From assembly GCA_965219385.1 (NCBI GenBank), contig CBDCNM010000002.1, positions 592,639 through 656,638 on the forward strand: a DNA stretch of 64,000 bases, in the 5' to 3' direction. A model generated the notes under the pieces. The model worked only from the letters and a program-made list of their open reading frames with translations, did not search any database and was not told the origin of the DNA. Below are positions 26,301 to 60,139 of the stretch, in pieces (positions within the stretch are counted from its first letter, which is position 1; each line of letters starts with the position of its first letter). Both the position numbers and the translations under genes were made by a program. Source of the DNA: Candidatus Latescibacterota bacterium. GTDB taxonomy: Bacteria > Latescibacterota > UBA2968 > UBA8231.

Positions 26301-26988
26301 GTACGTAAACGCCTTTGCCGCGGATGCCACCTTCGAGTGGGCAGAGTGGGTGCGCTATCATGCGATTACCGCGCTCGCAGCCGCGGATGCGGACGGCGAT
26401 GGCAGGGCCGAGGTGATGGTGGGGACCGAGTATTCCACCCCGCTGAACGTGCACAACAGCGATGGCTCCTTCCGCTGGACCACCTTTGAAGAGGTGGGGT
26501 CCGAGGGCAATGCCACCACGCCGAGGCGCGGCATCGGGCTCACCCACATGCAGCTGGTGGACCTGGATCGAGACGGTGTCCTGGAAATTGTCTACGGCAC
26601 CCAGGACGGCTGGATCTACGCGGTCGAGCCGCGGGATGGAGCCGAGGTCTGGCACGCCAATATCGTTGGTGAAGTCGTGGGGCTCATTGCCTTTCCCTCC
26701 GCTCTGGTCGCGGCCAGCGAATACGGCGAACTCTACTCCTTCAGCCATCGAGGCGATCTGCTCTGGCACATCCGGGTCGGCGAGTGGATACGGGCCATCG
26801 CCCAGGTAGAGGAATACATTGTTGCGGCCGTGGAGGAGGGGGGTCTGCGGGCCTGTGATGCGGAGGGCCGGTGCGTGGGCTCCATTGCGCTAGAAGCGGA
26901 GATCCGCGGTTTGTGGCCGTGCCGCGGCGGCGCGGTGTGCAGTCTGGCGGGGGGGCGGTTGAGTTGTGTGGAACTCGGCGTTTACTGA
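23395..26988 (+). CDS. Large hypothetical protein: heparinase II/III-like core plus C-terminal FG-GAP/PQQ beta-propeller
   Basis: HGHEDSNTI...KFHNSI...WRRNIFW..YFVVIDQL; repeated DIDDDG/DADGDG/DLDRDG loops. Confidence 0.7.
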   Translation: MMTEFVFEHSRHFPRTDLAADTALVVPDGLEAIEPVVRLQGIMASVAGRAPDIIAQKDFAETLFGDVQVIACGNMVNNAALRRLYTARCCFVDTFFPGGDGYFVKSISDPFGHGKNCITLGASSREGLLAAFAAFEDQVRSGELDRVHAARFQHPLPPFPAEAQLERMVQADLDTWEGIWVSTPFRGGQVENYAWYYYLSDHPVWGRAVPAIFAGSLEPWLAQRRDHPETYHCFFHFHSLIHLWDLIEDSPLYTEAERRGVVTMIGEMLRHLAGLFYLKEEVNPPGQIRQNHTTYIAMDLAVGHDYLSKRYGIREFEPTEEMAERIFAGQADCYKANDDGGVGYAWLVPQETLSYALLKKNDYSYIEDGHIADLCTLAVVTTDNMRSESNHGDTAGYALFSPSEGWEGRLWAPMVSTWYARNPEHLWILNWLGAGKRPTLTHVLRGLYAGVEWSENGFALTACVPEKPVGLLGIQAVKLPAEALRWVRAYAPADNRPDPPKDYFDKLSLRRDFNPASEYLLLEGSGTFCHGHEDSNTIVRLTWNDRAWLGDGDYIRAAPKFHNSIAVIRDGVGVLEPPGEGLLMPLLASLNYSSESAAFGLVQTEASGYNGGDWRRNIFWAKGRYFVVIDQLQCTEAGDYRCYCLWRLVGKAELKGSRVSLHQEGEHFYIHNADGAAQEIVADLHEKSRWRSYPHAGDALHVLHQQAARTMQPGESLAYVNLLTPHPDIRLERLNEMVVKISDGAEATILGVGHTRLGELAIEAEMFRISLKGDSLSLQGIERLGFADGENWNWEVFDGAHETLEAGQSEIAQRIRAALNAVAPEAPPSALKPSSLRPEGGWNAKWNRELGPTEIRDVAVHGAVLLAGTGAGEVVQLGLGDGAARWTHRLDADGAASALLLADIDDDGVVEALVGTDDGQLAVLEGESGGQRWCRALKNSGWGSRISGLAVANLEGRGRTSILASTVGWYVNAFAADATFEWAEWVRYHAITALAAADADGDGRAEVMVGTEYSTPLNVHNSDGSFRWTTFEEVGSEGNATTPRRGIGLTHMQLVDLDRDGVLEIVYGTQDGWIYAVEPRDGAEVWHANIVGEVVGLIAFPSALVAASEYGELYSFSHRGDLLWHIRVGEWIRAIAQVEEYIVAAVEEGGLRACDAEGRCVGSIALEAEIRGLWPCRGGAVCSLAGGRLSCVELGVY

Positions 26989-27045
26989 GCGGCATAGAGG
27001 GCAAATAGCCTGGCGCGGTCCATATACACTTTGACCTTGAGCCCC
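26936..27045. repeat. 110-bp direct repeat, left copy
   Basis: Identical to 38605-38714 (TGTGCAGTCTGGCGG...GACCTTGAGCCCC). Confidence 0.97.
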
Positions 27046-27352
27046 TGCACGATCTTGCTGATGGACTGGGTCGGCCGATAGGCCAAGAACATGTGCACAT
27101 GGTCGCGGCTGACCTTGCCCGTAATAATGTCCAGCTCATGCTCCAGGGCAATCTGGCGCAAGATATCCCGCGTACGGATCGCCACTTGACCAGTCAGCAC
27201 CCCTTTGCGGTATTTGGGAATCCAGATCAGATGGACTTTCAGGTCGGTTTTGGTATGAGCCCCTAAAGTATAACGTCGCATAGCAACAGAAAGATAATCT
27301 TTGCTTCGCCTGAAGGCGAGGGGTTTCCACCATCCCCGAGCGAGATACTAAA
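26982..27352 (-). mobile_element. tnpA: IS200/IS605 tnpA (Y1/HUH), 3'-truncated, with a subterminal hairpin
   Basis: HLIWIPKYRKGVL and DHVHMF (HUH) motifs; hairpin TTCGCC-TGAA-GGCGAG at about 27305-27320. The C-terminus is replaced by repeat-derived sequence. Confidence 0.88.
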
Positions 27353-27837
27353 CATTACATTTAATACTACTTTGTTAATTGGCGGATAACGTGCTCATTT
27401 GTCCACTATTTTTGCCTATTTTGGTCGCAATCTTTCGGCCAATACCGATCAGGATTTGTGCTGTAAGGTCCGAAGAAACAGCGCATTACCCCAAACAGAT
27501 CGCTTTCAAGCCTTTCGGTAATCTGCTGAAAAATAGGGACTTATGGGACCAGCACTCCTAATCAACAAAGTAATATTAAGACGGCTTCTTATATACCCTA
27601 GGAATCTCTGATTAAGTCTCCTGGCAAGTTCTTCCCTGAGAGGCTATATTATTACTGGACTTTTGCAAAAATCGGAAAATTTGTAGAAAATCATCGTTTC
27701 ACGAAAAGACAGCCCATTGAACCGCTTTGACCTATTTCATCTATAAGTAATTTAAAATCAACATATTGGGCATTGTGTAAAAATGCACTTTTGCAGGATG
27801 GACAGCCGATTAGATCAGACGAGAAAAATAGGTCTGT

Positions 27838-30800
27838 ATGAAAGTAACTCTCTTTAGCTGCGGGCCGGCCGTCAACGAGAGCGAGCGGAGGGCCTGCGAG
27901 CGGCTTAAAACAGGCTTAATTTCCAAATTGGGTGATGGTGAGTGGCTGCTGTTGACGAACCTCGCGTTTTCCACCACCCATCGTCGCCAATCAGACGAAA
28001 TCGACATTGTCGCCATTGGCCCGCCCGGAGTCCGGGTCATTGAAGTCAAGCACTGGACCGCGGCTTGGGTGAACCGGAATGACGAACTTGTGGAACGCGA
28101 GGCCGAGCGCATAATGGACAAGGCACGCAAGGTTGGTACCACATTGCGCCGGATCATCTCGGAACTCGGTCGGGTGGATGGGGTGTTCTTGGTCACGCAG
28201 GATGCCGCGAAAGTCAAGCCGCTTGAGGGACGGGAAGTCCGCGGAGTTCGGTTTCACACGTTGAGAACTTGGCAAGGTGCCTTGGCACTGGATGCGCCAG
28301 CGTCCCTATCGCCGTCGCAGGTCAAGATTCTGGGCAAGGCTCTGTACCCAAAGGCCAGTGTGGCTATGGGAGGTGCATTGAGACGCTTGGCTGACTATGT
28401 CAATCTGACGCTCCAAACCCCTGCGGACGAGCGGTCTCACCGAATTTACAAAGGTACACATTCCACACGTCGAGATCCCGTGCTCCTGCACCTCTATGAC
28501 GTGTCGGCGACCGAACAGCGGGATCCGGAGGCGAGGGCGCGGAGGGAATTTGACGCGCTCCACCGGCTGCAACTTCACGCTTGGGCACCGCGTATTGTCG
28601 ATTCATTCCAAGAATCACCGGGGTACGCTGGCGAGATGTGGTTCTTCACGGTCGCAGACCCGGCGGCCCCTAGCGTCGAGCAACGCGCCGCCGACGACAC
28701 TTGGGATGCGAAAGCGCGAATAGCCTTTGCTCGACAAGCAGTAGAAGCATTGACGGAGTTGCACGAAGCGGGTGAAGGCGAGGAACCCATGCTGCACCGG
28801 AACCTCACGCCGGGAACGATTCTCGTCAGACATGACAACACGCCGATCTTAACAGGTTTCCAGTACGCCCGGATTCCTGCGGACGTCACAGTGGCGGTCT
28901 CCGGCGGCGCAGAGGACGAGTGGGACGTTGCGGTGGCACCCGAGATTACGCAAGCAGGGCCTTGGGGCGGGGGATCGTCAATCCGATGTGTATTCGTTGT
29001 GCACCAGTCTGTCCGTGCTGTTCGCGAAACGAGACGATGACGAAAGTTTGGAGGCTAGCATGGCGCTGGCCGAGGGTAGCGCGGACGATCCGGCGGAGCG
29101 AACTACATTGGAAAAACTCCACGACTCGTTGTCGGCCCTGCTGGGCGAACCGCCGGCAGTCGTCGCGCCACCGGCCCAATTTTGGACCGAAGATCAGATT
29201 GTGAACTTTCGCGGCCGGGATTACCGAATCGTTTCGCGTCTCGGTTCCGGCGGGGTCGGAACCACGTTCAAGGTGGTGAGAATCGATGGCGCGACCGGCG
29301 GCGATCTCGGTGTCTACGTCGCCAAAGTGGTCAGCGACGAAGAAACGGGCCGGCGAGTCCTTCAGGCATACAATCTGGCGCATTCACACCTCAATCATTC
29401 GGCACTTTCAACTATCTTCGATACGGCGGAGAAGTGGCGCGACAACGACTTCGTTGCCTTGATGCACTGGATCGAAGGAGAACCCTTGATCGAACGCGCC
29501 GGTGTACTCCCGATTCTTGCCGAAGACTTCCACGAAGAATCGGGGGAGGCACTGGCGTTGCGTTGGCTGCGAACGGTTTGCGATGCGTTGGATGTTCTGC
29601 ATCGAAACGGCTTGGTCCATGGCGACGTCAGCCCGCGTAACATGATCGTTGCTGACGGCGAGATTGTTTTGACGGACTACGACTGCGTAGCCAAGGTGGG
29701 TGAGCCGGTCGCCGCTCCCGGCACCGTCATGTATAGCTCGAATTCGCATCTTGAAGACCGCCCGGCTGCGCCCGCGGATGACTTCTTCGCGTTAGCCGCC
29801 AGCTTTTTCCATGTGCTTTTTGAAAAAGAGCCGTTTATGTACGATGGTAGCCGAGCCAAGGAACGCGGCTTGAACTGGGAGGGCGTCGAGCGTGAGGAGT
29901 ACCCAACCGTCACCACATTTCTAGCGAAGGCGACGAATCCCGACCCCGATCAGCGATTTGCGTCTGCGGCTGAAGCAAAGGCTGCTTTGAGTCCACCTCG
30001 GCATACGGACACTGATGAACCTGTTGACGAGGGCGGCGGTGATGCCATAGAGCCGAGATCAGAACCTCTCGTTCGCAGCGAGAACGAGGTGCCTTGGCTG
30101 CAATCCTTGCTGCAATCTTACCCCGGCTCTCGCTGGGGAAACAGCGAAACGCGCGGCCTCGACACGGACTTTGCCGCGCAAACCTACGTTGAAACCCCTC
30201 TTGAAGACGCGCTGTATCACGATATTCTACGTCGAAAAGTCCGGCTCGTCATCCTGTGCGGCAACGCCGGCGACGGGAAAACCGCACTGCTTCAGCACCT
30301 TGCCAGAGGCCTTGGGTTTGGCGTCCACAATTCTTCAGAGCGCATTCTGGAGAATCAGATGGACGATGGCCTGATCGTCTGCATGAATCTCGATGGGTCG
30401 GCGTCGTGGCAGGGACGTTCCGCTGATGAGCTTTTGGATGAATTCTTGGAGCCGTTCCAAAAAGGTGAGCCCGCGGAGGACATTGTCCATCTTCTGGCGA
30501 TCAACGATGGGCGTCTCTTGGAGTGGATTGATAGAGTCGAAAGTGAAACGCCGTTGACACAGGCTCTCGACAGCTTGCTCAACGGCGAGGAATCCGCCCC
30601 CGAATCGCACATCCGCTTTATCAGCCTCAATCAACGGTCTCTTGTTGGAAGTGTTGTGCCAAGTGAATCGGACATTGAAACTGGCTTTCTTGAGAATTTG
30701 CTAGACAGTCTCTACGGCAGAGAAAAGGCTCGCCAGATTTGGGCACCTTGCGAGACGTGTTCGGCCCAAGACCGGTGTGAGGTCCGCCGCGCCATGCGGC

Positions 30801-31843
30801 GGTTTGGTCCCAAAGGGCTTCCCGGCATGGTCCCGGAAGATGAGCGCAAGCGGGCTCGGCAACGGCTGTTTGAGATGTTGCAAGCCGTTCACCTGCGCGG
30901 CGAAACCCACATCACGGTCCGCGAACTACGGGCTGCACTGGTATATGTCCTGTTCGGCGTTCACTTCTGCCGCGACTATCACAACGGTGCGGACGCTCCG
31001 TTGCCTTATTGGGAGCGCGCCTTTTCGCCGAAGTCGCCAGGGCGGCAGGGAGAAGTGTTGCAAGAGCTAATTCGTTTTGACCCGGCCCTTGAAGCCCATC
31101 CGCAGATTGATCGGCACCTTCTGCGAACCCCCTCTGTTGATACCTCTGAAGGTGCTCCCCACTATCCGAGGTTGACGCTGGAAGAAGCCCGGCGGCGGGC
31201 CTATTTCGAGTGGACCAAAAACAACATAGCCGCGCTCGCCGTAGATCTTCACGCCCTCGACTTGGCCCAAGCTCGGCATTATCGGGAGTTCAGCAATCTC
31301 CCAACCGCCGCAGGAGATCTCGACGATCTTTGCCAAAGGCTGTGCAAGGGGATTGCACACTTGGAAAGTCTGCCCCCCCAAGCAGTTGACCGCCTCGGTG
31401 TCGTCCCGCTACGCATCACGCCGCGAACGCCTACGGAAACCGCGTTCTGGGTCGAGAAGCCACTGACTAACTTTCGGCTTAAAGCTGACCTGCCAGCCGA
31501 AGCTGAGGGACTTGACCGCCTGCATCGCCAAGCCTTCCTGATTTACCGCTATCGGGATGGGCGTGAAGAGCGGCTCCGCCTCGGTGCCGACCTGTTTCAC
31601 CTACTGCTGGAACTTAGCGAAGGCTATCAGTTGGGCGATGTTTCGACCGATGACACCTTTGCTCACTTGTCGATCTTTGTGCAGCGGTTGGTGCGCGAGG
31701 ATGACCGCAGAGTGTTGGCTTGGAATCCAATGCAGGACGCGGCGATCTACGAGGTTGCTGCGAAGATCGTCGAAGGTGCCGGTGCTGGCGTTCAGCAACA
31801 GATGATTATTCAGAAATGGCAGGAGACGGAAAATGGCAGATAG
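27838..31843 (+). pseudogene. NERD nuclease - degenerate kinase - Ser/Thr kinase - P-loop ATPase fusion (MAD6/DndF-like), one +1 frameshift at about 28946-28948
   Basis: NERD EIDIV..VIEVKHW; kinase 1 HRNLTP/APE/SDVYSL; kinase 2 LGSGGVG/VAK/HGDVSPRN; Walker A CGNAGDGKT; AINDGRL. Joined product about 1334 aa. The frameshift could be a sequencing error. Confidence 0.8.
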
Positions 31844-33635
31844 TGCTCGAAAACTCGTCGAAGAAGTGTTGTCCCCCGGCATGACCCGAGAAATATGGTC
31901 CGGTAACTATGACAAGGTGCTGCCAGTCTCGGTGCAGGATTTCGAGTTGTCTTCGATCCTTCCCGCGGTCTTCTATATGTTCCGCTTTGGGCACCGTAGA
32001 GGCAAGGGAAAGTTTATAGAAACCTTTGGGTTGCGAGAGGGTTCGGAAAGCGAAAAAAGACGCTCTGCGACTGTCGATCGAGTCGCAGAAAGACTTTCCA
32101 GTACAGTAGGGTTAGACGGTTTTAACGGAGAACCCGAAAAGGCCATCCTCGGCGACCTACTGCTCTGTTTCTGTCTCGAAAATATCAAGCACAATCTCGG
32201 TCGCGACCATCAGATCCAGCGGGTCGCGCCGGCCCATTACATGGCGAGTTGGATTGATCTGCCAGACAGAGCGGTGAACCTCCGCTACGTTCCCGAAATG
32301 ATAGTAGCTATGCTGGCCAATCAGAAGGGCGAATCTGTCGGACAGAGCGACGATAAGAAAACATGGTTTCCGGTGGGGAAAAAGTACGAGGAGAACGTTT
32401 TGTTGGGTGCTTTCAGCCAAGGAGTTACCCGCCGTGGAGAGGTCTTGAGTGACTTGGCATCGGATCGATTCGAGGAGGAAGACAACTCGGTCGGACTGGA
32501 TCAACTATTAATGATCCGGCTTGCGCAGCAACTCAAGACGGCACCGGACAAGATGCGTGGTAAAGAGGGCGGCCCAATCTCCAATCAACGCCCTATTGCT
32601 GAGCAAGCGGCGCGGAACTTTTCCGAGGACATCCGCCGCTTTGTGCGTTCTTATGCAGTCCCGATGCCGCGACACGCTTTAGTAGAGATGCTGGAATCCT
32701 GCATTGCCATAGGTCTGACGACTATTCTTACCAGTACGGTCGAGCTGTTGTTGCAGTGGGCGGAGACAGGCACTGTCCCGGACTGCGAGGAACAGCTACC
32801 CGCACCTTTGTTCGTGGATTGCTCTAATGGGATCGAGCGAAGTATCCGGGCTGCGGCCGAGCAGTCGATGGATGACTACATGCGGCGTATGGAGCATTTC
32901 CCTGTCCTTCTGATGGTATTGCGGCTATTGGACTATCGGGCGCGGTACAACCAGAAAATCAAAAAAGAGGGTATTGCTATCCGACCTTATGCCGCCGCTT
33001 GGCTGAATCTGTTGGGGGATTTGCTGCACAACCGCCACTCGGAAGCGCAATTAATCCTGTACAGCATTGGAGATACGGCCGCAAGACTGGCCGAGAAACT
33101 GGAGGATGATTACCCCGAAACTACGGAGATTTTGGATGATGTTGATAACCAGCCGAATCCGGTCTGGCGGCTTGCCGATGGTTTGATGGTGCTAATGGGG
33201 CCGAAATCTCGTAACAAATTCATCGGGATGATCGACTCAAGTTTACTCACCGGGCGTCCAAACGGTCTGGCAGCTAAGAGAACGACGACGCGGGGTCTCG
33301 GTGGAAGCACAACGCGCCGGAAACGCGACCTTCGTTCCCTCGTATTCACCGATTCGGTGCTGGACTATCTGGTCCATCTTCACTTATTGAAAAGCGGCAA
33401 CAAACCGGGCGTCCGCGCCCTTTCGTTCGGGGGGTTTCTCGAAGAATTGCGCGAACGCTATGGATTTCACGTAGATGCCGCCCCGCCGGGGATGACGATC
33501 TCCAACGAATTGCTGCAAAGGAACCGTGCGATTCTGGAGCGGCGTCTGCGCGATCTGGGGCTTTTGGTGGGTGTCAATGATGCAGAAGCGATGAAGTGGC
33601 TGTCGCCTCGCTTCAAGCCGACGATGGAAAACTGA
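31833..33635 (+). CDS. Hypothetical 600-aa protein (MAD7/DndG-like position)
   Basis: Overlaps the upstream stop; C-terminal LERRLRDLGLLVGVND; assignment rests mainly on context. Confidence 0.7.
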   Translation: MADSARKLVEEVLSPGMTREIWSGNYDKVLPVSVQDFELSSILPAVFYMFRFGHRRGKGKFIETFGLREGSESEKRRSATVDRVAERLSSTVGLDGFNGEPEKAILGDLLLCFCLENIKHNLGRDHQIQRVAPAHYMASWIDLPDRAVNLRYVPEMIVAMLANQKGESVGQSDDKKTWFPVGKKYEENVLLGAFSQGVTRRGEVLSDLASDRFEEEDNSVGLDQLLMIRLAQQLKTAPDKMRGKEGGPISNQRPIAEQAARNFSEDIRRFVRSYAVPMPRHALVEMLESCIAIGLTTILTSTVELLLQWAETGTVPDCEEQLPAPLFVDCSNGIERSIRAAAEQSMDDYMRRMEHFPVLLMVLRLLDYRARYNQKIKKEGIAIRPYAAAWLNLLGDLLHNRHSEAQLILYSIGDTAARLAEKLEDDYPETTEILDDVDNQPNPVWRLADGLMVLMGPKSRNKFIGMIDSSLLTGRPNGLAAKRTTTRGLGGSTTRRKRDLRSLVFTDSVLDYLVHLHLLKSGNKPGVRALSFGGFLEELRERYGFHVDAAPPGMTISNELLQRNRAILERRLRDLGLLVGVNDAEAMKWLSPRFKPTMEN

Positions 33636-33636
33636 T

Positions 33637-36600
33637 ATGGGGTGGACCAAACTACATGGCCAAGCACTAGGGCGGGCGTTTGAGAGGGTGCTGGGCCGCG
33701 CCGAAACCGGAGCCATGGCCTTCGTCCGTTGCCTGACGCCGGATGTGGTGGCAAAGCTCGCTGCGGACGACAACTTCTGCGTACAAAATTGGCAGGTGCG
33801 GCGGGTGGCGGATTCGGACAATGCAGACCGGCGGACCCTTACCGCAGACCGCGCGGTCGAGATGCGCGAGGCCAAAGGCAATGCCACCTTGCTGCTGGTG
33901 GATACGCATCTTGCCGGGGCTGGCATGGACGGCATCTATAGCGCCTCGCGGGAAGTGGACGAAGCAAGCCTGTTCAAGGAGGCTCGAAGACTAGCTGGTG
34001 CTGAGGTGACGCGACGGTTATCGAGTGCTCATCGCCAATATGCCGAGCGGGCCATTAGAAAAGCCGAAGGATTCGGTAGTCAGTACAGCGTTTCGCCTTG
34101 GACCGCGTTCGATTTTCTCTGCCGCATTGCGGCGCACAAACGGCATCCAGGCGCGTATCTGCACCTGCTCGGACTATGGCTAGTCGCTGAATCTGCGGAC
34201 TTAGACGAGGGAGCACTGGACGACTCGCGCCGGTTTGTAGAGCACCTGTTGGGAACGGCGGCCTCTGGGCTGACCATCCCGGCGCGCATTGAGTCGCTGC
34301 GGCTGGCGGAGCCGACGGCCGAACAACGCGGCGCTCTCGCAGTTTTCCTGCACACCGCAGAAACCCAACCGCTTTTGTCTGCTCTGGAAAAACTGGCCGA
34401 CAAGAAACAACTGTGGGTGGGCGAATTGCAGATAGAGAGTGCCCATGATATCCAAGCCATCGAACTTGTGTCTTGGCGCAATAGGAACGGCTCGATTGCC
34501 AAGTGGTCGGGATTAGACCCCGAGGTGAAATCATTGGCTGAAGAATCCGACCAGCAACTACCAGTTCTGATCCTGAAGCCCGAAGCCACGTCGGCGGCTG
34601 ACTATTCAAACCTAGAGATCCGCTGGAAGGCCCGACCCGGCAATTTGGAAAAGAACGCGGTGGATTATCGAGTTGCCGTAGTGGCCGGTGCGGATGAAGA
34701 GCTGGCCGTGCGCGACGTGAGTCACTCGGCAAAAAAGGCGGAGAAGTGTCGGTTCAGTAATGACGACTTCTCGATGCTGAACGAGGACTCTCGGATCTCC
34801 GCCAAAATGGTGATTTCCGTGGTGGGCAACGACGCGATTGACCCTCAAGAGAGCGAGGAATTCAACATCCGCTTTGGCGAGCCACCCGAAAAAACCGCCG
34901 GAGGGGCTGGCCGCAAGGTCCGTGCGTTCAGCGAGGGATTGGTCGAACTCGATGATTGGGAGAGCATGTCCACCATCGCCGATAGTACGGCGAATTTCGA
35001 CTTTGATGCGAAGGGCAATTTGGCGCTATTGCGCACATCCGTAGGTACAAAACGGTTGAGTTTTCGCGTACCCTGCCCGCCACTGATCCGCGACGTGGAA
35101 AAGCAATGGAGGGAGCGCGGCGGAGCGATTGGGCATTGGCGCGTCAATGTGCGTGCGTCCGGTGCTCGAGCGGGGGATGTGGAGTTCATTCGCTATCAGG
35201 GTAGGGGGCCGACATGGAAGAAAGCCTCCGTGGCGAGCCGAAGATTGGCGGCCCGCGTCTACAAGGACGGCGGAGTAGTGGGCCATGTTTATGACGATAA
35301 GGCGAAAGCGTTTGATTCGGTCAAAGAGTACATCCGCGCTTGGACTGCATTGTTGGAGAGTGGCGATCCATCCTTGGCGCTGTGCAACACCGTGGAGGTA
35401 CGGTCCCTTGCTGGGCGGATGATTGGCCTCATCGTCCTGCCGATGCACCCGTTGCGCGTCGCGTGGCATGCAGCGTATGACAATCTCGTTTTCCACGCGG
35501 CCTTTGAGCAGGGTCAAAAGGCAAAAGACGTAGGAGACGAGCTTCAGTGCTTGGACGGTGCCATGTTCCCGGCTTTTCTCCCGAATCTGGACGGCGGATC
35601 GTTTGTCTTTGCGGACACCCTCGGCTTTCATGCGGTCGGCATGGTTCCCGATACAGACAAAGAACCCAAAGCTGCGGTGGCGATGCTCGCCCGTGCGCTG
35701 GGGGAAGATGAGTCAATGGACGCTGCTCCGACGGTAGGGGGACAGAGCGCAGAGGTGGTCGGTGACGAGATTGTCAAGTACTTGGATTGCCACAACACGT
35801 CTGAACTACTCCATGTCCACGCCCTTCGGGCGGGAGATGGTCTGACTATCGCCCGGTCGTTGGGCCGTGTCCACGACCGCCTGCGCCAAGCTGACGACGC
35901 GGATGATTCGGAGGATGAATCGCAGGATGCGCCCGTCTTCTCGTTGGAAATGTATCCTTCTGAGGAGCAGCGCGGAATTGCCGGGCGGTTCATCGCCGAG
36001 GCGCGGGAACGGCGGCGCAGTGGTGCTGGCGTGGTGTCAACCGACGATCAGTGGATGCTCGAATCCCGGCCTCTGCCCGGCGGCGTGAACATGCCGAAGT
36101 TGCGCTGGGCACGCAAAGATGTACCCGATCCGAAGACCGCAGCCCACATTGCCGTTGCGTTTGACACATTCGAGTCGGAGGTAAAGCTGGACAAGCGGGA
36201 GAGGCCGAGCGACGGGACGTTCCATGCGTTTGGCCTGCTCTCGTTCTACGAGCGCGACTTCGCCGCCAAGCCCTCGCCGCTATGGCGCAGTACGGTCCCG
36301 CTGGCGAAAGATGGCGAGAGGCACCCGGCGGACCGCGCACATACTAAACGCTTGGATGATTTACAGCGTGTCATACAGGAGACTGTGGCGCGACATGTCG
36401 GTGCCGCGAATGGAGAACTGCCGGTACTGTACACAGAGGTATCACGGGAAAAGGAAGACGGCCTCGCGGAACTCCACCGGCTTTGTGATTGGGTCATTAC
36501 GCTGGACCGAAACGCCGGCATCGAGTACTTCGATTCCCCACGGGACAATCAGACAATCTACGATGCTTACGTGATTGACTGCGTTCCAGAACGGGAGGAC

Positions 36601-38601
36601 TTGGGCTGCTTACAGCTAATCACCTCTACCAGCAATTTGGAGGAGGTACGCGTCCTGTTTGATGATGCCTTGGATCAGATGGGGCTTAGCCACAGCCGCC
36701 GCAACGCGGAATTCCTTTTGGAGCATCTGAAGGCCCTCAGCGGCCGGCTCGCCATTCGCCTCACCGGAGACAAACCGCCGACTTCGGAGTTGATCGCGCT
36801 CGCTGTTGCACAGGCAAATTGCCAGCAGGCACAGGAGACGGATCCATGCTGGGTATCGCTGGAACGCGGTTTCATCGTTCCCGTCGATGATGTTCGGGAT
36901 CTCTTGCCGCCGTTGACGGATAAGGACGGTGATGAGAGGGAGGTGCGGCCGGACCTGATATACGTGACTACGGCACCGAGAAAGGGACTGATGTTCCATT
37001 TCGTCGAGGTCAAGTACCGTCGAGATCTACGCGCTGCAAGGTCCCCGCACATCCTGCGCCGCATTCGGGAACAGACCGCTGCGATGCGCAAGCGTTGGGA
37101 CGATTGGTACTCGCATGAAGAGTGCTCTGCGTTCAGAGCAGTTCGTCGTGCCAAGCTGGCACGGGTTCTGCGCTTCTATGCAGATAAGGCACGTAGACAC
37201 GATTTACCGGCGGCGCGGCATACCGAACTCGTGGCCGAGATTGATCGCATGATCGAAAAGGGCGGCGACTACCGGCTGGATACGGACAGAAGCGGCGACC
37301 GCGGCTGGGTGTTTTGCCCCGAGTATGCCGGGGTGAGTCCGTTGGAGATTTCTCCGGACAATTGGAGTACGAAGGTATTCCTATGCGGTCCTGACCTGCT
37401 GCCGGACTTGGACTTTCGCGGTGAAATGACCACCAGCTTCCCTGAATCGGAGGCTCGACCGTCGTCAGAGCAGGACGCCGCAAGGGGCACCGGCAATATA
37501 TCCGTTGACCATCTGGAAGCCATTGGTGGAGAAACGGAAGATGCCATTGATGCTATACCCTCGATCTGTTTCGGCACCGATCCCTTTACTAACACAGAAG
37601 TTCGATGGCCGCTGACCGTACAGGGCAACCCGCACCTTCTGATAGCGGGGCTGCCCGGTATGGGCAAGACTACCTGCCTTCTGAACCTGTGCAATCAGAT
37701 GATGGCAGCCGGTATTCGCCCGCTCATCTTTTCCTATCATCAGGACATTGACGAGCGACTTGGGCAGTCGGCTGATTCGGTTCGGTTCATCGATTTTGAT
37801 GGTTTGGGCTTCAATCCGCTGGAGGTGGTCAATCGAGGATCTTGGATGGCGCATCTCGACGTGGCGGGCGCGATGCGGGATATTTTCGCAGCGATCTACC
37901 CAGAACTCGGCGACATTCAGGCCGAGCGCATTCGTGGAGCCATCAAGGAAAGCTTCGTTGAGGTGGGGTGGGGAAACGCCAACGAGGCTGCCTCGGATTT
38001 GCAGGAACCGACGTTCAGGCGCTTTGTCGAGATTCTGCGCGGCGATCCGAAACCGGACCGCGGGTTGCGTACGCTGCTCGCACGTTTGGAAGAACTTGAA
38101 GACTACGGTTTCTTCAATCTCCGTGAGTCCCACAGTAGCCTATGGGAGAGCGAGCAGCCGACCGTCATTCGGATTCACACGACTCAGAATGATAATCTTC
38201 AGCGGGCTTTTGCGTCGTTGGTGTTTTACGGTCTCTACAAAGACATGTTCCGCAGAGGTATCCAAGATCGAATCACGCACGCCTTGATTTTCGACGAGGC
38301 GCACCGGGCCGCAGGGTTAAAGCTCATTCCCACCATGGCGAAAGAGTGCCGGAAGTACGGTATTTCGCTAGTGCTTGCCTCGCAGGAGGCGAAGGACTTC
38401 GACGTCTCGGTATTTTCGGCTATCGCCAACTATCTCGTTTTGCGATTGACCGAAGCGGATGCTAAGTCGCTTGTACGGAATGTGTCGAGTTCGCAGCAGG
38501 AACGAGTATTGATCGACAAAATCAAACAAATGGACCGATTCAAAGCCCTGTATTTCTGCGAGGGTAAAAGTAAGCCCTACCCCGTAGAGCTTTCTTCTTG
38601 A
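33637..38601 (+). CDS. 1654-aa protein with a PD-(D/E)xK motif and C-terminal HerA/DUF87-like ATPase (MAD8/DndH-like)
   Basis: RPDLIYV...FVEVKYR; Walker A GLPGMGKT; Walker B LIFDEAH; ECRKYGISLVLASQ. Confidence 0.8.
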   Translation: MGWTKLHGQALGRAFERVLGRAETGAMAFVRCLTPDVVAKLAADDNFCVQNWQVRRVADSDNADRRTLTADRAVEMREAKGNATLLLVDTHLAGAGMDGIYSASREVDEASLFKEARRLAGAEVTRRLSSAHRQYAERAIRKAEGFGSQYSVSPWTAFDFLCRIAAHKRHPGAYLHLLGLWLVAESADLDEGALDDSRRFVEHLLGTAASGLTIPARIESLRLAEPTAEQRGALAVFLHTAETQPLLSALEKLADKKQLWVGELQIESAHDIQAIELVSWRNRNGSIAKWSGLDPEVKSLAEESDQQLPVLILKPEATSAADYSNLEIRWKARPGNLEKNAVDYRVAVVAGADEELAVRDVSHSAKKAEKCRFSNDDFSMLNEDSRISAKMVISVVGNDAIDPQESEEFNIRFGEPPEKTAGGAGRKVRAFSEGLVELDDWESMSTIADSTANFDFDAKGNLALLRTSVGTKRLSFRVPCPPLIRDVEKQWRERGGAIGHWRVNVRASGARAGDVEFIRYQGRGPTWKKASVASRRLAARVYKDGGVVGHVYDDKAKAFDSVKEYIRAWTALLESGDPSLALCNTVEVRSLAGRMIGLIVLPMHPLRVAWHAAYDNLVFHAAFEQGQKAKDVGDELQCLDGAMFPAFLPNLDGGSFVFADTLGFHAVGMVPDTDKEPKAAVAMLARALGEDESMDAAPTVGGQSAEVVGDEIVKYLDCHNTSELLHVHALRAGDGLTIARSLGRVHDRLRQADDADDSEDESQDAPVFSLEMYPSEEQRGIAGRFIAEARERRRSGAGVVSTDDQWMLESRPLPGGVNMPKLRWARKDVPDPKTAAHIAVAFDTFESEVKLDKRERPSDGTFHAFGLLSFYERDFAAKPSPLWRSTVPLAKDGERHPADRAHTKRLDDLQRVIQETVARHVGAANGELPVLYTEVSREKEDGLAELHRLCDWVITLDRNAGIEYFDSPRDNQTIYDAYVIDCVPEREDLGCLQLITSTSNLEEVRVLFDDALDQMGLSHSRRNAEFLLEHLKALSGRLAIRLTGDKPPTSELIALAVAQANCQQAQETDPCWVSLERGFIVPVDDVRDLLPPLTDKDGDEREVRPDLIYVTTAPRKGLMFHFVEVKYRRDLRAARSPHILRRIREQTAAMRKRWDDWYSHEECSAFRAVRRAKLARVLRFYADKARRHDLPAARHTELVAEIDRMIEKGGDYRLDTDRSGDRGWVFCPEYAGVSPLEISPDNWSTKVFLCGPDLLPDLDFRGEMTTSFPESEARPSSEQDAARGTGNISVDHLEAIGGETEDAIDAIPSICFGTDPFTNTEVRWPLTVQGNPHLLIAGLPGMGKTTCLLNLCNQMMAAGIRPLIFSYHQDIDERLGQSADSVRFIDFDGLGFNPLEVVNRGSWMAHLDVAGAMRDIFAAIYPELGDIQAERIRGAIKESFVEVGWGNANEAASDLQEPTFRRFVEILRGDPKPDRGLRTLLARLEELEDYGFFNLRESHSSLWESEQPTVIRIHTTQNDNLQRAFASLVFYGLYKDMFRRGIQDRITHALIFDEAHRAAGLKLIPTMAKECRKYGISLVLASQEAKDFDVSVFSAIANYLVLRLTEADAKSLVRNVSSSQQERVLIDKIKQMDRFKALYFCEGKSKPYPVELSS

Positions 38602-38604
38602 AGT

Positions 38605-38714
38605 TGTGCAGTCTGGCGGGGGGGCGGTTGAGTTGTGTGGAACTCGGCGTTTACTGAGCGGCATAGAGGGCAAATAGCCTGGCGCGGTCCATATACACTT
38701 TGACCTTGAGCCCC
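38605..38714. repeat. 110-bp direct repeat, right copy
   Basis: Identical to 26936-27045. Confidence 0.97.
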
Positions 38715-56965: not shown

Positions 56966-57042
56966 TGGCGTGCCCAGCAGGATTCGAACCTGCGACCGTC
57001 TGCTTAGAAGGCAGATGCTCTATCCAGCTGAGCTATGGGCAC
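56966..57042 (-). tRNA. tRNA-Arg(TCT)
   Basis: GTGCCCATAGCTCAGCTGGATAGAGCATCTGCCTTCTAAGCAGACGGTCGCAGGTTCGAATCCTGCTGGGCACGCCA: cloverleaf, TCT anticodon, encoded CCA. Confidence 0.96.
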
Positions 57043-57295
57043 ACCTTAAGGCTGGCCTTAAACTTACAGCCATAAGTACGTAGAAATAATAGCTTTATAT
57101 AATATGAGTGGGTTCTATACTCTCCGATCTATTTATATCCTCTTCGCTCTGTTTGGGTTTGTTTTGGCCAATTTTGGCCAATTTTGGGCACCAAATACGA
57201 TAAATTATAGATCTTCTGCGCTAGATAGAAACGACGTAAACCCCGTTCTAATCTTAAAAAAATAGATATTCTTCTAAATCTTAACAAGGCCGGGC

Positions 57296-57562
57296 TCAAT
57301 CATTCTCAAAGTCGACCATATCTGCCTGAGCGCCGAAATGTAAGGCAATGGAATGATCGTAATAATCGTCTGTGGTCTTTGGAGAGGTATGTCCAAGTAA
57401 TTTCTGCACTATATCCAGGGGTACACCTTTGGAACGTAGATAGGTGGCATAGGTATGCCGTAGTGAGTGGAGAGAATAATATTCTGGCAAATCAGCGTCT
57501 CGGAGATATTTCTTGAACATATGGCTGACAGAATCTTTATGCCAGGACTTGTCTTTTCTATG
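57296..57562 (-). pseudogene. Tyrosine recombinase/integrase C-terminal remnant
   Basis: LHSLRHTYAT...VQKLLGHTSPKTTDDYY motifs. Confidence 0.88.
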
Positions 57563-57824
57563 TGATCCTCTTGATCTACTATTAGTTTCAGCAGATCCCA
57601 GACCAGATCCCTCTATCCATTGCCCAAACGTTCAAAAGTTCCAATTGTATCGAACCCTCCATGCTTTAGGTAGTCTGTTGATAAATTCCGCTAGACCAGA
57701 ATTGGCCAGAGAATATATAGAGGCATCGAACCAATATTTTCGTGACGTAATACAACATACTAAACGAAATGGTGTAAGCCTCAATATCTACGAACCTAAT
57801 TTGGCGGGCGGACTCACTTCTTTA

Positions 57825-58756
57825 GAGGCCGTCTGAAAACCATGTTTATTCTAAGCGAGTCGTTTGAGTAGCAAGTAAATCATGGCGATCTGAATCAACG
57901 CTTCGCTGTGGCGGGTCAACACTTCATAATCTCGGGCATGCCGACGAAAGTTCATCAACCACGCAAAGGTTCGTTCGACCACCCACCGTCGTTTGAGCGG
58001 TGTAAATCCATTTCCTTGTTTAGCGACGACTTCCAAGTCGATCTTATGCGTCTTTTTTAAGTCGGCTACCCACCCTTTGAGATCGGCTCCCGCAGAGCCG
58101 CCATCAACCCACAGCTTACGTAGCCTAGGTAGGCCGGGCGCAACATAGCGGGTCAACACCCGCTTCAAGCCGTCCCGATCGCCCACATCGGCGGCGGTGA
58201 CTTCCACCGGCCGGATCCATCCCAAGGTATCTACCCACAGGTGACGTTTGCGTCCTTTGATCTTTTTGCCGGCGTCATAACCGATTGTTTCTCCTTGGGT
58301 TGCCGTCTTGATGGTCTGGCTATCGACCCCGCCGGCCGACGGGGTTGATAGCCGACCCTGCCGGCGGCGTTCCCGCTGGGTGAGTCGATCCAATATCGGC
58401 GGCCAGACCCCTTGTAGGCTCCAGCGGCGAAAGTAGTCATACACCGTTTTCCACGGCCCCAAACTCGCGGGTAACAAAGCCCAAGGACAGCCGGTCTTGG
58501 TCAGATACAAAAGACCATTGATGATCTGGCGTGGATCCCGCCGCGGGCGGCCCGGCCCGCCAGGAGGCCACGTCGAGGCGGGTAGTAACGGCTTGATTAG
58601 ACGCCATTGCGCATCGGTTAGATCGGTGGCATATTCGTCGGCAGGCGTACTCATCATAGGGGCCTTTCTATTCAGATTTTGTGGTGAAACCTGAATATGG
58701 CCCGATGAGTACGCCGATTCAAATACGGGCTACATCAAGAGTTTTCAGACGGCCTC
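57825..58756 (-). mobile_element. IS5-family (IS1031-like) element 1; transposase 57851-58657
   Basis: 16-bp IRs GAGGCCGTCTGAAAAC; YATDLTDAQW, VDSQT, KGRKRH, WVDGG and RRWVVERTFAW motifs. Flanks are TTA and TGA. Confidence 0.93.
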
Positions 58757-58958
58757 TGAGGCGGCCGGCGGCATAGCGCGGATCCTCCAGGGCCTTTAGC
58801 AGGGGCTCGACTGCCTGCTCTTTGGCCAGTAGCAACTCGTGCTGGGCGTTGAGCTGGTCCTCTGGGCTGCCGCTCAGATTCTCGATGTGGTCTTCCAGCG
58901 AGGGGCCGCAGGCAAGACATAGAAACACGGGGGGGAACAAGGGTAAATAGAATTGCAT
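58757..58958 (-). pseudogene. Lipoprotein (HEAT-like) N-terminus truncated by IS5
   Basis: Lipobox CLAC; AVEPLLKALED; the frame runs into the IS end. Confidence 0.6.
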
Positions 58959-59152
58959 AAGACCAAAACAACGTAACTCGAAGCGACCTGTATCAAGGCT
59001 TCACCTAGATGATGGCTTCGATACGACTACAGGAACTCAATTTCGCAGTTTCTCAAGCAATTCTTTCCAAGTATTTGTGTTTTGTTTGTAGCTCACTGCG
59101 GCCATGAGTCCCTCATCAGGAGACTGAACCGCCAAAGCCCATCCAAGCCTTA

Positions 59153-60082
59153 GAAGCCGTCTGAAAACTCTAATTTTCATTTGATTCGTTTAAGTAGCAA
59201 GTGGATCATGGCAATCTGGATCAAGGCTTCACTATGGCGGGTCAAGACCTCATAATCTCGGGCATGTCGGCGAAAATTCATCAACCACGCAAACGTGCGC
59301 TCGACGACCCACCGGCGTTTAACTACGGTAAATCCGGAGCCTTGTTTGGCGACGACTTCCAAGTCTATTTTGTGCGTCTTTTTTTGGTTGGCCACCCACG
59401 TTCGGATGGCCTCGCCTTGGTAGCCGCCATCAACCCACAGCTTGCGTAACCGAGCCACGCCGGCGGCCTTCAAGCGGGTCAACACCTGCTTCAAACCCTC
59501 TCGATCCTCGACATCGGCGGCGGTGACCACCACCTGTCGAAGCAAACCCGACGGGTCCACCAACAGATGCCGTTTGCGGCCTTTGATCTTTTTGCCGGTG
59601 TCATAACCGGTTGTTTTACCATGCGTTGCGGTCTTAATCGTCTGACTATCGACTACGCCAGCCGACGGCATCGCAGCCCGGCCGCTCTGGCGGCGCTCCC
59701 TCTTGGTCAGCCGATCCAACACCAGCGGCCAGACCCCTTGCAGGCTCCAGCGACGAAAGTAATCATACACCGTTTTCCACGGCCCAAAACAAGCAGGCAA
59801 CAACGCCCAAGGACACCCCGTCTTGTTCAAATACAAAAGGCCGTTGACAAGCTGGCGTCGATCCCGCGGCGGCCGACCCGGACCGTGAAGCCGCCAGCGC
59901 GGCGCGGGCAGCAACGGTTCGATCCGCTGCCATTGTGCATCGGTTAGATCGGTGGCATATTGCATACGCGGTGTACTCATCATACAAGCCTTTCTGTTCA
60001 GAGTTTGTGGTGAAACCTGAATATGGCTCGATGAGTACGCCCGTTCAAATGCGGCTACATCAGAGGGTTTTCAGACGGCTTC
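59153..60082 (-). mobile_element. IS5-family element 2; transposase 59177-59983
   Basis: IRs GAAGCCGTCTGAAAAC; TTA target duplication; intact 268-aa DDE ORF. Confidence 0.95.
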
Positions 60083-60139
60083 TTAGAGCTATTTGGATAG
60101 ACCCGGCGTGTGGTATCGAATGACAAGCCGCGCAAGTGT

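Follow-up and report, generated by a model that had tools for sequence, protein, structure and literature searches.

The tested F-G-H trios considered here, those of Dnd, Ssp and MADS, use a self-mark and restrict phages (PMC8092258; Maestri et al., bioRxiv 10.1101/2023.03.30.534895), and comparative genomics predicts that many such trios travel alone. The in silico argument for DndFGH as a stand-alone system was made by Rakesh, Aravind and Krishnan (2024; PMC10853773), who name a fusion of NERD nuclease, inactive kinase and active kinase on DndF and suggest interception of segregating or conjugating DNA. The marks of DndF given there are a canonical Walker A motif, an asparagine at Walker B, an N/D after strand 2 and an optional zinc insert. 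A NERD domain, pseudokinase and kinase also make up the N-terminus of the type 2 BREX protein PglW (PMC12839542).

A trio of this kind is present in a Candidatus Latescibacterota bacterium (GenBank assembly GCA_965219385.1, contig CBDCNM010000002.1, positions 592,639 to 656,638 of the forward strand). The window refers here to this whole stretch of 64,000 nucleotides (nt), the island or insert to the 11.6 kb between two 110-nt repeats within it, and the trio to genes 1, 2 and 3. The trio is a real and well-defined member of the kind already described, and the copy in the window is damaged. Both its architecture and the idea of a stand-alone DndFGH have been published in silico (PMC10853773). 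No experimental test of a mark-free F-G-H trio was found in the literature searched, a search that left subscription journals mostly outside its coverage.

Architecture and predicted folds of the trio

The trio occupies the following positions; L-numbers denote fetched related loci, with about 6 kb visible upstream and 5 kb downstream.

27838..29040, + strand: gene 1 (DndF/MAD6-like), N-terminal piece; 400 amino acids (aa); NERD nuclease and pseudokinase, with the frame lost after codon 370
28948, + strand: frameshift base in gene 1; one surplus A, absent from L001, L002, L003 and L051
28928..31843, + strand: gene 1, C-terminal piece; 971 aa in a different frame; active-type Ser/Thr kinase and DndF core (GNAGDGKT, NLDG, AINDG, CxxCx5C)
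31833..33635, + strand: gene 2, DndG/MAD7-like; 600 aa; 11-nt overlap with gene 1
33637..38601, + strand: gene 3, DndH/MAD8-like; 1654 aa; 1-nt gap after gene 2; methyltransferase fold at about 679-1000, PD-(D/E)xK at 1106-1126, HerA/FtsK at about 1308-1644

An earlier note on this DNA had described three tightly coupled genes: a NERD nuclease joined to a degenerate kinase, an intact Ser/Thr kinase and a GNAGDGKT ATPase; an unknown of 600 aa; and a protein of 1654 aa with a PD..EVK motif and a HerA-like ATPase. The overlap and the gap bear out the coupling, motifs and Pfam agree with the description of gene 1, motifs with that of gene 3, and the unknown of confirmed length now has a predicted fold matching DndG. 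Its guess at the MAD6-8/DndF-G-H family is likewise upheld by profile, fold and tree.

In gene 1, the NERD domain scores above the Pfam cut-off (E 1.9e-10), the pseudokinase has HRN and lacks the catalytic Asp, and the second kinase retains GxGxxG, VAK, HGD, N and DYD (Pkinase E 5.8e-16). The P-loop core, with its GNAGDGKT, matches the SspF (E 3e-16) and DptF (E 1.3e-4) profiles and, to judge from its sequence, carries the features that Rakesh et al. list for DndF. Among 59 full-length relatives, the NERD D/E/K residues are conserved in 58 and the HGD Asp of the kinase in 57; the core GDGKT, N-x-D-G, Walker B Asn (AINDG) and three Cys are each present in all 59. Two other relatives, L038 (8094-9983) and L109 (8110-9981), have as gene 1 a bare DndF core of about 625 aa, with genes 2 and 3 open and no trace of NERD or kinases upstream of the short gene.

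The gene 2 model (48 sequences, predicted local distance difference test (pLDDT) 77) has DndG (7EXX) as its sole Foldseek match at E <= 0.001 (E 4.7e-5). In a fold comparison (VIA) the same structure aligns with Z 19.5 (root-mean-square deviation (rmsd) 6.4, 376 aligned), and the next has Z 4.2. Gene 2 is thus predicted to have the DndG fold and, by analogy with DndG, may bind DNA. On the MAD7 profile (NF047733) it reaches 134.8 bits against a cut-off of 410.

The DndH profile match of gene 3 (E 1.6e-21) is restricted to the C-terminus, where the HerA motifs are GLPGMGKT, DEAH and ECRKYG..SQ, with the Walker A GKT and DEAH present in 57 of 57 relatives. Ahead of this, PD..EVK corresponds to D1106, E1124 and K1126, conserved in 53, 55 and 53 of the 57. 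The modelled part, residues 261-1290, gave no Foldseek match at E <= 0.001. In a wide fold search, all 50 listed rows fall on about 679-1000 and nearly all are class I methyltransferase folds (best match Z 11.5, rmsd 3.5, 173 aligned). No [DNS]PP[YFW] catalytic motif follows strand 4, and the region is modelled as a degenerate class I methyltransferase fold. Its glycine-rich motif I loop, RAGDG (G733 and D734 in 57 of 57), and the DRNAGIEYFDSP...VPEREDLG segment show the highest conservation in gene 3 outside the ATPase, with a mean of 0.85 over residues 951-1000. For the N-terminal SWI2/SNF2-like, helix-turn-helix, beta-sandwich and target-recognition domains (TRDs) of DndH, what the gene 3 model offers is a predicted all-beta region, with weak Foldseek rows only.

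In two Bryobacterales loci (L008:11811-15632 and L009:11808-15614), gene 3 has no HerA domain: both versions end cleanly beyond the nuclease, at one shared position. The host genomes also contain dndC and dndE away from the trio; a separate HerA copy was not found there with the query used, in a search that had no positive control.

Relatives, neighbourhoods and marks elsewhere

The locus set (n=123) comprises 43 genome loci, 79 metagenome loci drawn from the best 80 of 472 confirmed, and 1 plasmid locus. Pfam scans took in 282 of the 286 flanking open reading frames (ORFs) of the genome set, setting aside 4 antisense shadows, and 188 of the 213 of the metagenome set, where 25 were near-identical-locus repeats or shadows. 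Gene order is fixed. Of the loci with enough flanking sequence to tell, 108 of 110 have gene 1 upstream and 96 of 98 have gene 3 downstream. The Pfam scans of the flanks reported no dnd or ssp families, and restriction-modification (R-M) genes occur in 5 of the 34 loci (near-duplicates included) in which 3 kb can be seen on both sides. The comparison and neighbourhood survey that the earlier note had proposed (homologues against MAD6-8 and DndFGH, genome search for mad2/mad5 and dnd) confirms the family and finds it mostly mark-free; the case that it had raised of homologues always sitting beside methylase or HsdS genes is absent. Many copies are instead located between housekeeping genes. A conserved fourth gene is ruled out, the largest flanking cluster being present in at most 3 of 43 loci.

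Gene 2 has 1495 relatives among 8000 candidates scored. The trio has a patchy distribution, with 12 carriers among 153 genomes from the phylum. Its closest relatives are in Candidatus Latescibacterota assemblies, and it crosses phyla at 50-85% identity. It is found on conjugative plasmids, in one case adjoining a SIR2 gene, and an intact copy lies on plasmid pRphaR630c of Rhizobium phaseoli, a cultured and non-pathogenic host (WP_064829459, WP_064829458 and WP_237358108). None of 67 IMG/VR pattern hits was confirmed as a viral copy, and a plasmid DNA search with gene 3 gave no match. It is proposed that the trio moves horizontally as a three-gene cassette. Whole-trio loci are flagged as broken in 18 of 54 cases; L008 and L009 are clean truncations, which leaves 16 of 54 with a frameshift or stop. 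Because breaks of gene 1 in relatives are scattered in position, a programmed or conserved split of that gene is ruled out.

Type I systems have swappable TRDs, unlike the pattern seen in the trio. Comparison of close pairs puts the stretch of lowest similarity in a linker for 32 of 35 pairs of gene 3 and for 30 of 41 of gene 1. No hypervariable target-recognition region is seen, and because the least similar stretches are linkers there is no sign of specificity swapping.

In two subgroups, operons hold additional small genes. Between genes 2 and 3 these encode nucleotidyltransferase domains (L071, L074-L079, L083, L084, L087 and L094), and between genes 1 and 2 they are PIN, MqsA-like or DUF29 genes (L065, L067, L080-L082, L090, L099, L100 and L104). 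An AAA_21 ATPase with a small partner gene lies beside the trio in L081 (13458-15340) and L034 (2350-4134), a pairing reminiscent of mad3/mad4 and not conserved.

In a tree of the F core, the window and 30 relatives form one clade (31 rows, SH-aLRT 99, stem 1.31), apart from four rows linked to methylase and S-subunit genes and three of the phosphorothioate (PT) family. An intact gene 1 is about 25% identical over its full length to MAD6 of L057, and genes 2 and 3 are 25% identical over part of their length to MAD7 and MAD8 (residues 594-1193 for gene 3). As a control, the L057 plasmid locus passes the NCBIfam cut-offs for MAD2, 5, 6, 7 and 8. The trio falls below every one that applies: the intact L002 protein reaches 188 of 460 bits on MAD6, gene 2 reaches 135 of 410 on MAD7, and MAD8 has no match. 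The trio HerA matches DptH and not MAD8. With this distance in sequence and these scores, the trio forms a clade of its own and is not a truncated MADS.

Kinase-fused relatives at greater distance were met on plasmids, among 9 loci fetched from 15 listed records. All four such relatives (L057 and three more) have a methylase and S subunit upstream of gene 1, immediately so in the further three. In two Bacteroidota plasmids (L138:15632-16336 and L139:22001-22666), a PP2C phosphatase gene follows a reduced MADS-type operon of methylase, S subunit and F-G-H, with no mad3/4 annotated, which suggests reversible phospho-control in those operons. A Priestia plasmid (L140:8235-21718) has an annotated dptF-dptG-H trio beside a Dam-type methylase and an AlwI-type nuclease, and no dnd gene is annotated across the 27 kb shown.

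Marks could also be encoded at a distance. The earlier note had left open whether the trio stands alone or relies on a modification encoded elsewhere. In favour of the former, a genome-wide search of the window's genome (94% complete) gave no dndC, dndD or dndE match, and MAD2 had none at E 1e-20; the latter, through a host methylase acting in trans, is less likely, though type I M and S genes are numerous in this genome and the closest strong match lies about 170 kb from the trio. A PAPS-reductase match lies 2.4 Mb from the trio. No sspBCD genes were seen in the island or flank scans, SspB and SspC not having been searched genome-wide. Across the 43 host genomes, all counts being from incomplete assemblies, the same searches placed dndC over cut-off in 5 and dndE in 3, with dndC unlinked to the trio where it could be placed. 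MAD5 exceeded its cut-off in none of the 43; this profile is no test for an ordinary HsdS, and PF01420 was therefore run as well.

The window copy and its insert

The two overlapping frames of gene 1 read as a single gene broken by one extra base at 28948, because four homologues lack the A and intact relatives are about 1330-1365 aa long. Against residues 1-374 of L002, whose protein is intact, the N-terminal piece shows 89% identity. Contigs of the public runs X1-X3 give depths without the base of 19.7 of 29.6, 14.9 of 20.7 and 7.9 of 15, and the remainder resembles the depth of pieces identical to the window. The insertion is therefore probably real in this strain; the contigs come from one study, possibly including the source sample. 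Translation could restart at 29060, where an in-frame ATG has GGAGG five bases ahead of it, and would then give kinase and core. A different, 4-nt deletion (window 29060-29063; L001:7216) is seen in L001 and in a related strain of runs X1-X4, about 110 nt downstream of the window's frameshift; the two neighbouring breaks of gene 1 are independent.

The insert contains an IS200 tnpA remnant, two dispersed non-coding repeats, the trio and nothing else. Its features other than the trio are these.

26936..27045, no strand: 110-nt direct repeat, left copy; contains the 3' end of the 1197-aa gene on the left, with a duplicate of the 3' end of the 486-aa gene on the right
27046..27281, - strand: IS200/IS605 tnpA, 5' part; truncated at the left repeat; Pfam Y1_Tnp E 1.3e-21, model 2-75 of 121; NF033573 over cut-off
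27361..27579, no strand: element of about 220 nt resembling a miniature inverted-repeat transposable element (MITE); terminal inverted repeats of about 21 nt
27645..27775, no strand: second dispersed repeat; 5 copies including this shortened one; just upstream of gene 1
38605..38714, no strand: 110-nt direct repeat, right copy; starts 3 nt past the gene 3 stop codon; junction present in contigs of runs X1 and X4

The 110-nt repeats are perfect and are the sole two copies in the genome. Two convergent host genes overlap at their 3' ends, and it is these ends that the repeats duplicate, so that both genes remain whole. Contigs of other runs support both junctions, crossing or branching at the ends of the left repeat. 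No empty insertion site was found: of 30 relatives searched, 4 loci were inspected, and in none of these did the two flanking genes lie side by side. The island that the earlier note described as repeat-bounded and free of modification genes does indeed contain no methylase, HsdS or dnd gene, and no integrase; mad2- and mad5-profile matches are absent from the whole window. The second dispersed repeat is probably the end of another mobile element. The MITE-like family has 13 matches in the genome including the window copy (78-100% identity) and no Rfam match.

A promoter scan of 27250-27900 gave 1 site against 1.4 expected, structured RNA searches of the island gave zero Rfam matches at E 0.1, and a fraction of 0.05-0.08 of the sequence words is present in RNA runs. 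Since gene 1 is frameshifted and mobile elements scar the region upstream, the window copy is probably decaying; with gene 1 broken, it is a poor test object. Elsewhere in the window (56966-60087), a lower-GC region opens with a tRNA-Arg and, after it, a 268-aa transposase-like gene with terminal inverted repeats, present as two tandem copies that have diverged (77-88%).

Possible modes of action and comparison with known systems

Around the established architecture, predicted folds, conserved catalytic residues, fixed order and lack of a linked mark, an account of function may be built in which we place a little better than even confidence. The trio would belong to the F-G-H restriction family (DndFGH, SspFGH, MAD6-7-8) and act alone, without self-marking genes. 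Its three proteins would assemble into one complex, binding DNA through gene 2 and the middle of gene 3 and driven along it by the HerA domain, and the PD-(D/E)xK domain would nick or cut invader DNA. Because there is neither a mark nor a swappable specificity region, the most likely trigger would be a fixed feature missing from self DNA: a foreign DNA modification, or else nucleotides of phage origin that the P-loop of gene 1 would sense. The NERD domain and kinase pair would be an add-on, as suicide back-up or for tuning, and not the essential switch. Rakesh et al. (PMC10853773) propose the same logic, which supports this account.

Several points weigh against it. Methylase or HsdS genes do lie near the trio in 9 of 122 loci (L010, L023, L025, L026, L106, L111, L115, L132 and L134). 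They occur on both sides and both strands, and at 4 of these loci a restriction subunit of their own can be seen. In R. anhuiense two methyltransferases immediately follow the trio, the R. phaseoli plasmid copy has a type ISP enzyme 5.8 kb off, beyond insertion sequence (IS) elements, and at the end of L042 stand a helicase and an incomplete gene, possibly an R-M system. The HsdS domain (PF01420) is present in 34 of 43 hosts. SspFGH and DndFGH damage hosts that lack PT (PMC8092258), and self/non-self discrimination in MADS uses methylation (bioRxiv 10.1101/2023.03.30.534895). The breaks in 16 of 54 loci could reflect toxicity to unmarked hosts, assembly error being uncontrolled in that count. 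The kinase module is retained in most relatives, and the F-core tree comes from a quick search with long branches and 7 outgroup rows.

The trio may instead be an effector arm borrowing a self-mark in trans, much as MAD6-8 uses MAD2/MAD5; the mark could come, for instance, from a type I HsdM/S complex of the host or from a solitary methylase of a common kind. This is unlikely, although the methylase and S subunit upstream of all four fetched distant plasmid relatives, the prevalence of HsdS in the hosts, the many type I genes of the window's genome, and frequent decay after transfer, which fits incompatibility with new hosts, all speak for it. However, no linked partner has been retained despite moves across phyla, the window's genome has no MAD2 match, and no HsdS domain was found in 9 of 43 hosts, including G004, a single-chromosome assembly with an intact trio. 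A phosphorylation gate, as the earlier note had envisaged, would have the built-in kinase hold the nuclease off or switch it on in place of a DNA mark. The nearly invariant catalytic residues, the PP2C gene after gene 3 in 2 of 4 MADS-type relatives, and the inactivation of DndFGH by a phage kinase that phosphorylates it (PMC12345140) favour such a gate. We nevertheless judge it rather improbable: no phosphatase is conserved beside the trio clade in the flank scans, and L038 and L109 lack NERD and both kinases yet have genes 2 and 3 open, these clean kinase-less genes weakening the earlier proposal. Mark-dependent MAD6, moreover, has the same kinase pair, so the pair did not arise to replace a mark.

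It may also be, more speculatively still, that this is the first F-G-H machine needing no DNA mark, with its own kinase, a ligand (possibly S-adenosylmethionine (SAM)) at the degenerate methyltransferase fold, or both keeping it off until a phage disturbs that state. If so, it would protect against phages whose counter-defences lower SAM or change nucleotide pools, and would illustrate how a single effector trio comes to be connected to PT marks, to methyl marks or to none. A role outside phage defence, with the same enzymes acting against plasmids or maintaining the cassette (addiction), has slim prospects. Toxin-antitoxin genes are often inserted within the operon, and the interception of segregating or conjugating DNA suggested by Rakesh et al. 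would suit such a role; tested relatives restrict phages, however, and frequent inactivation without loss argues against strong addiction. Least probable is a non-functional remnant of MADS that has lost mad1-5. The full-length homology of gene 1 to MAD6, the partial homology of the other genes to MAD7 and MAD8 and the broken window copy are what such a remnant would show, but the separate long-stemmed clade, the abundance of gene 2 relatives, the conserved catalytic residues, the DptH-type HerA and scores below cut-offs that a true MADS locus passes largely refute it for the clade.

Among known systems, type 2 BREX stands apart: PglW differs from gene 1 in its C-terminal half, its profile (NF033442) scores 20 of 990 bits, and no pglX or pglZ adjoins the trio. 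Classical DndBCDE-FGH and SspABCD-FGH share a homologous F core, the DndG fold and the DndH HerA, but the three F proteins of the PT family that were fetched measure 614-798 aa and carry no kinase fusion, whereas gene 1 is such a fusion. In MADS, MAD6 (Maestri et al., bioRxiv 10.1101/2023.03.30.534895) has the same layout as gene 1, with NERD, HRN pseudokinase, kinase and GNAGDGKT. MADS differs in that the trio has no linked mad1-5, leaves the MAD8 N-terminal model unmatched and has a different HerA; gene 3 is about 1650 aa as against about 1850, and gene 2 is 600 aa as against 520-557.

DndFGH in the sense of Rakesh et al. (PMC10853773) is a close match. Shared with the systems described there are the gene order, a DndF core with the Walker B Asn, N-x-D and Zn insert, a kinase-fused DndF, the DndG fold, decoupling from PT genes, and a DndH with a dead methyltransferase, a nuclease and a HerA domain with Gln sensor and Arg finger. 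Gene 3 keeps the glycine-rich RAGDG of motif I, which that paper calls eroded in DndH; no structural difference from the described systems was found. The trio clade is a clean and coherent example of the mark-free kind, and the intact copy on a Rhizobium plasmid makes the prediction of stand-alone F-G-H systems testable.

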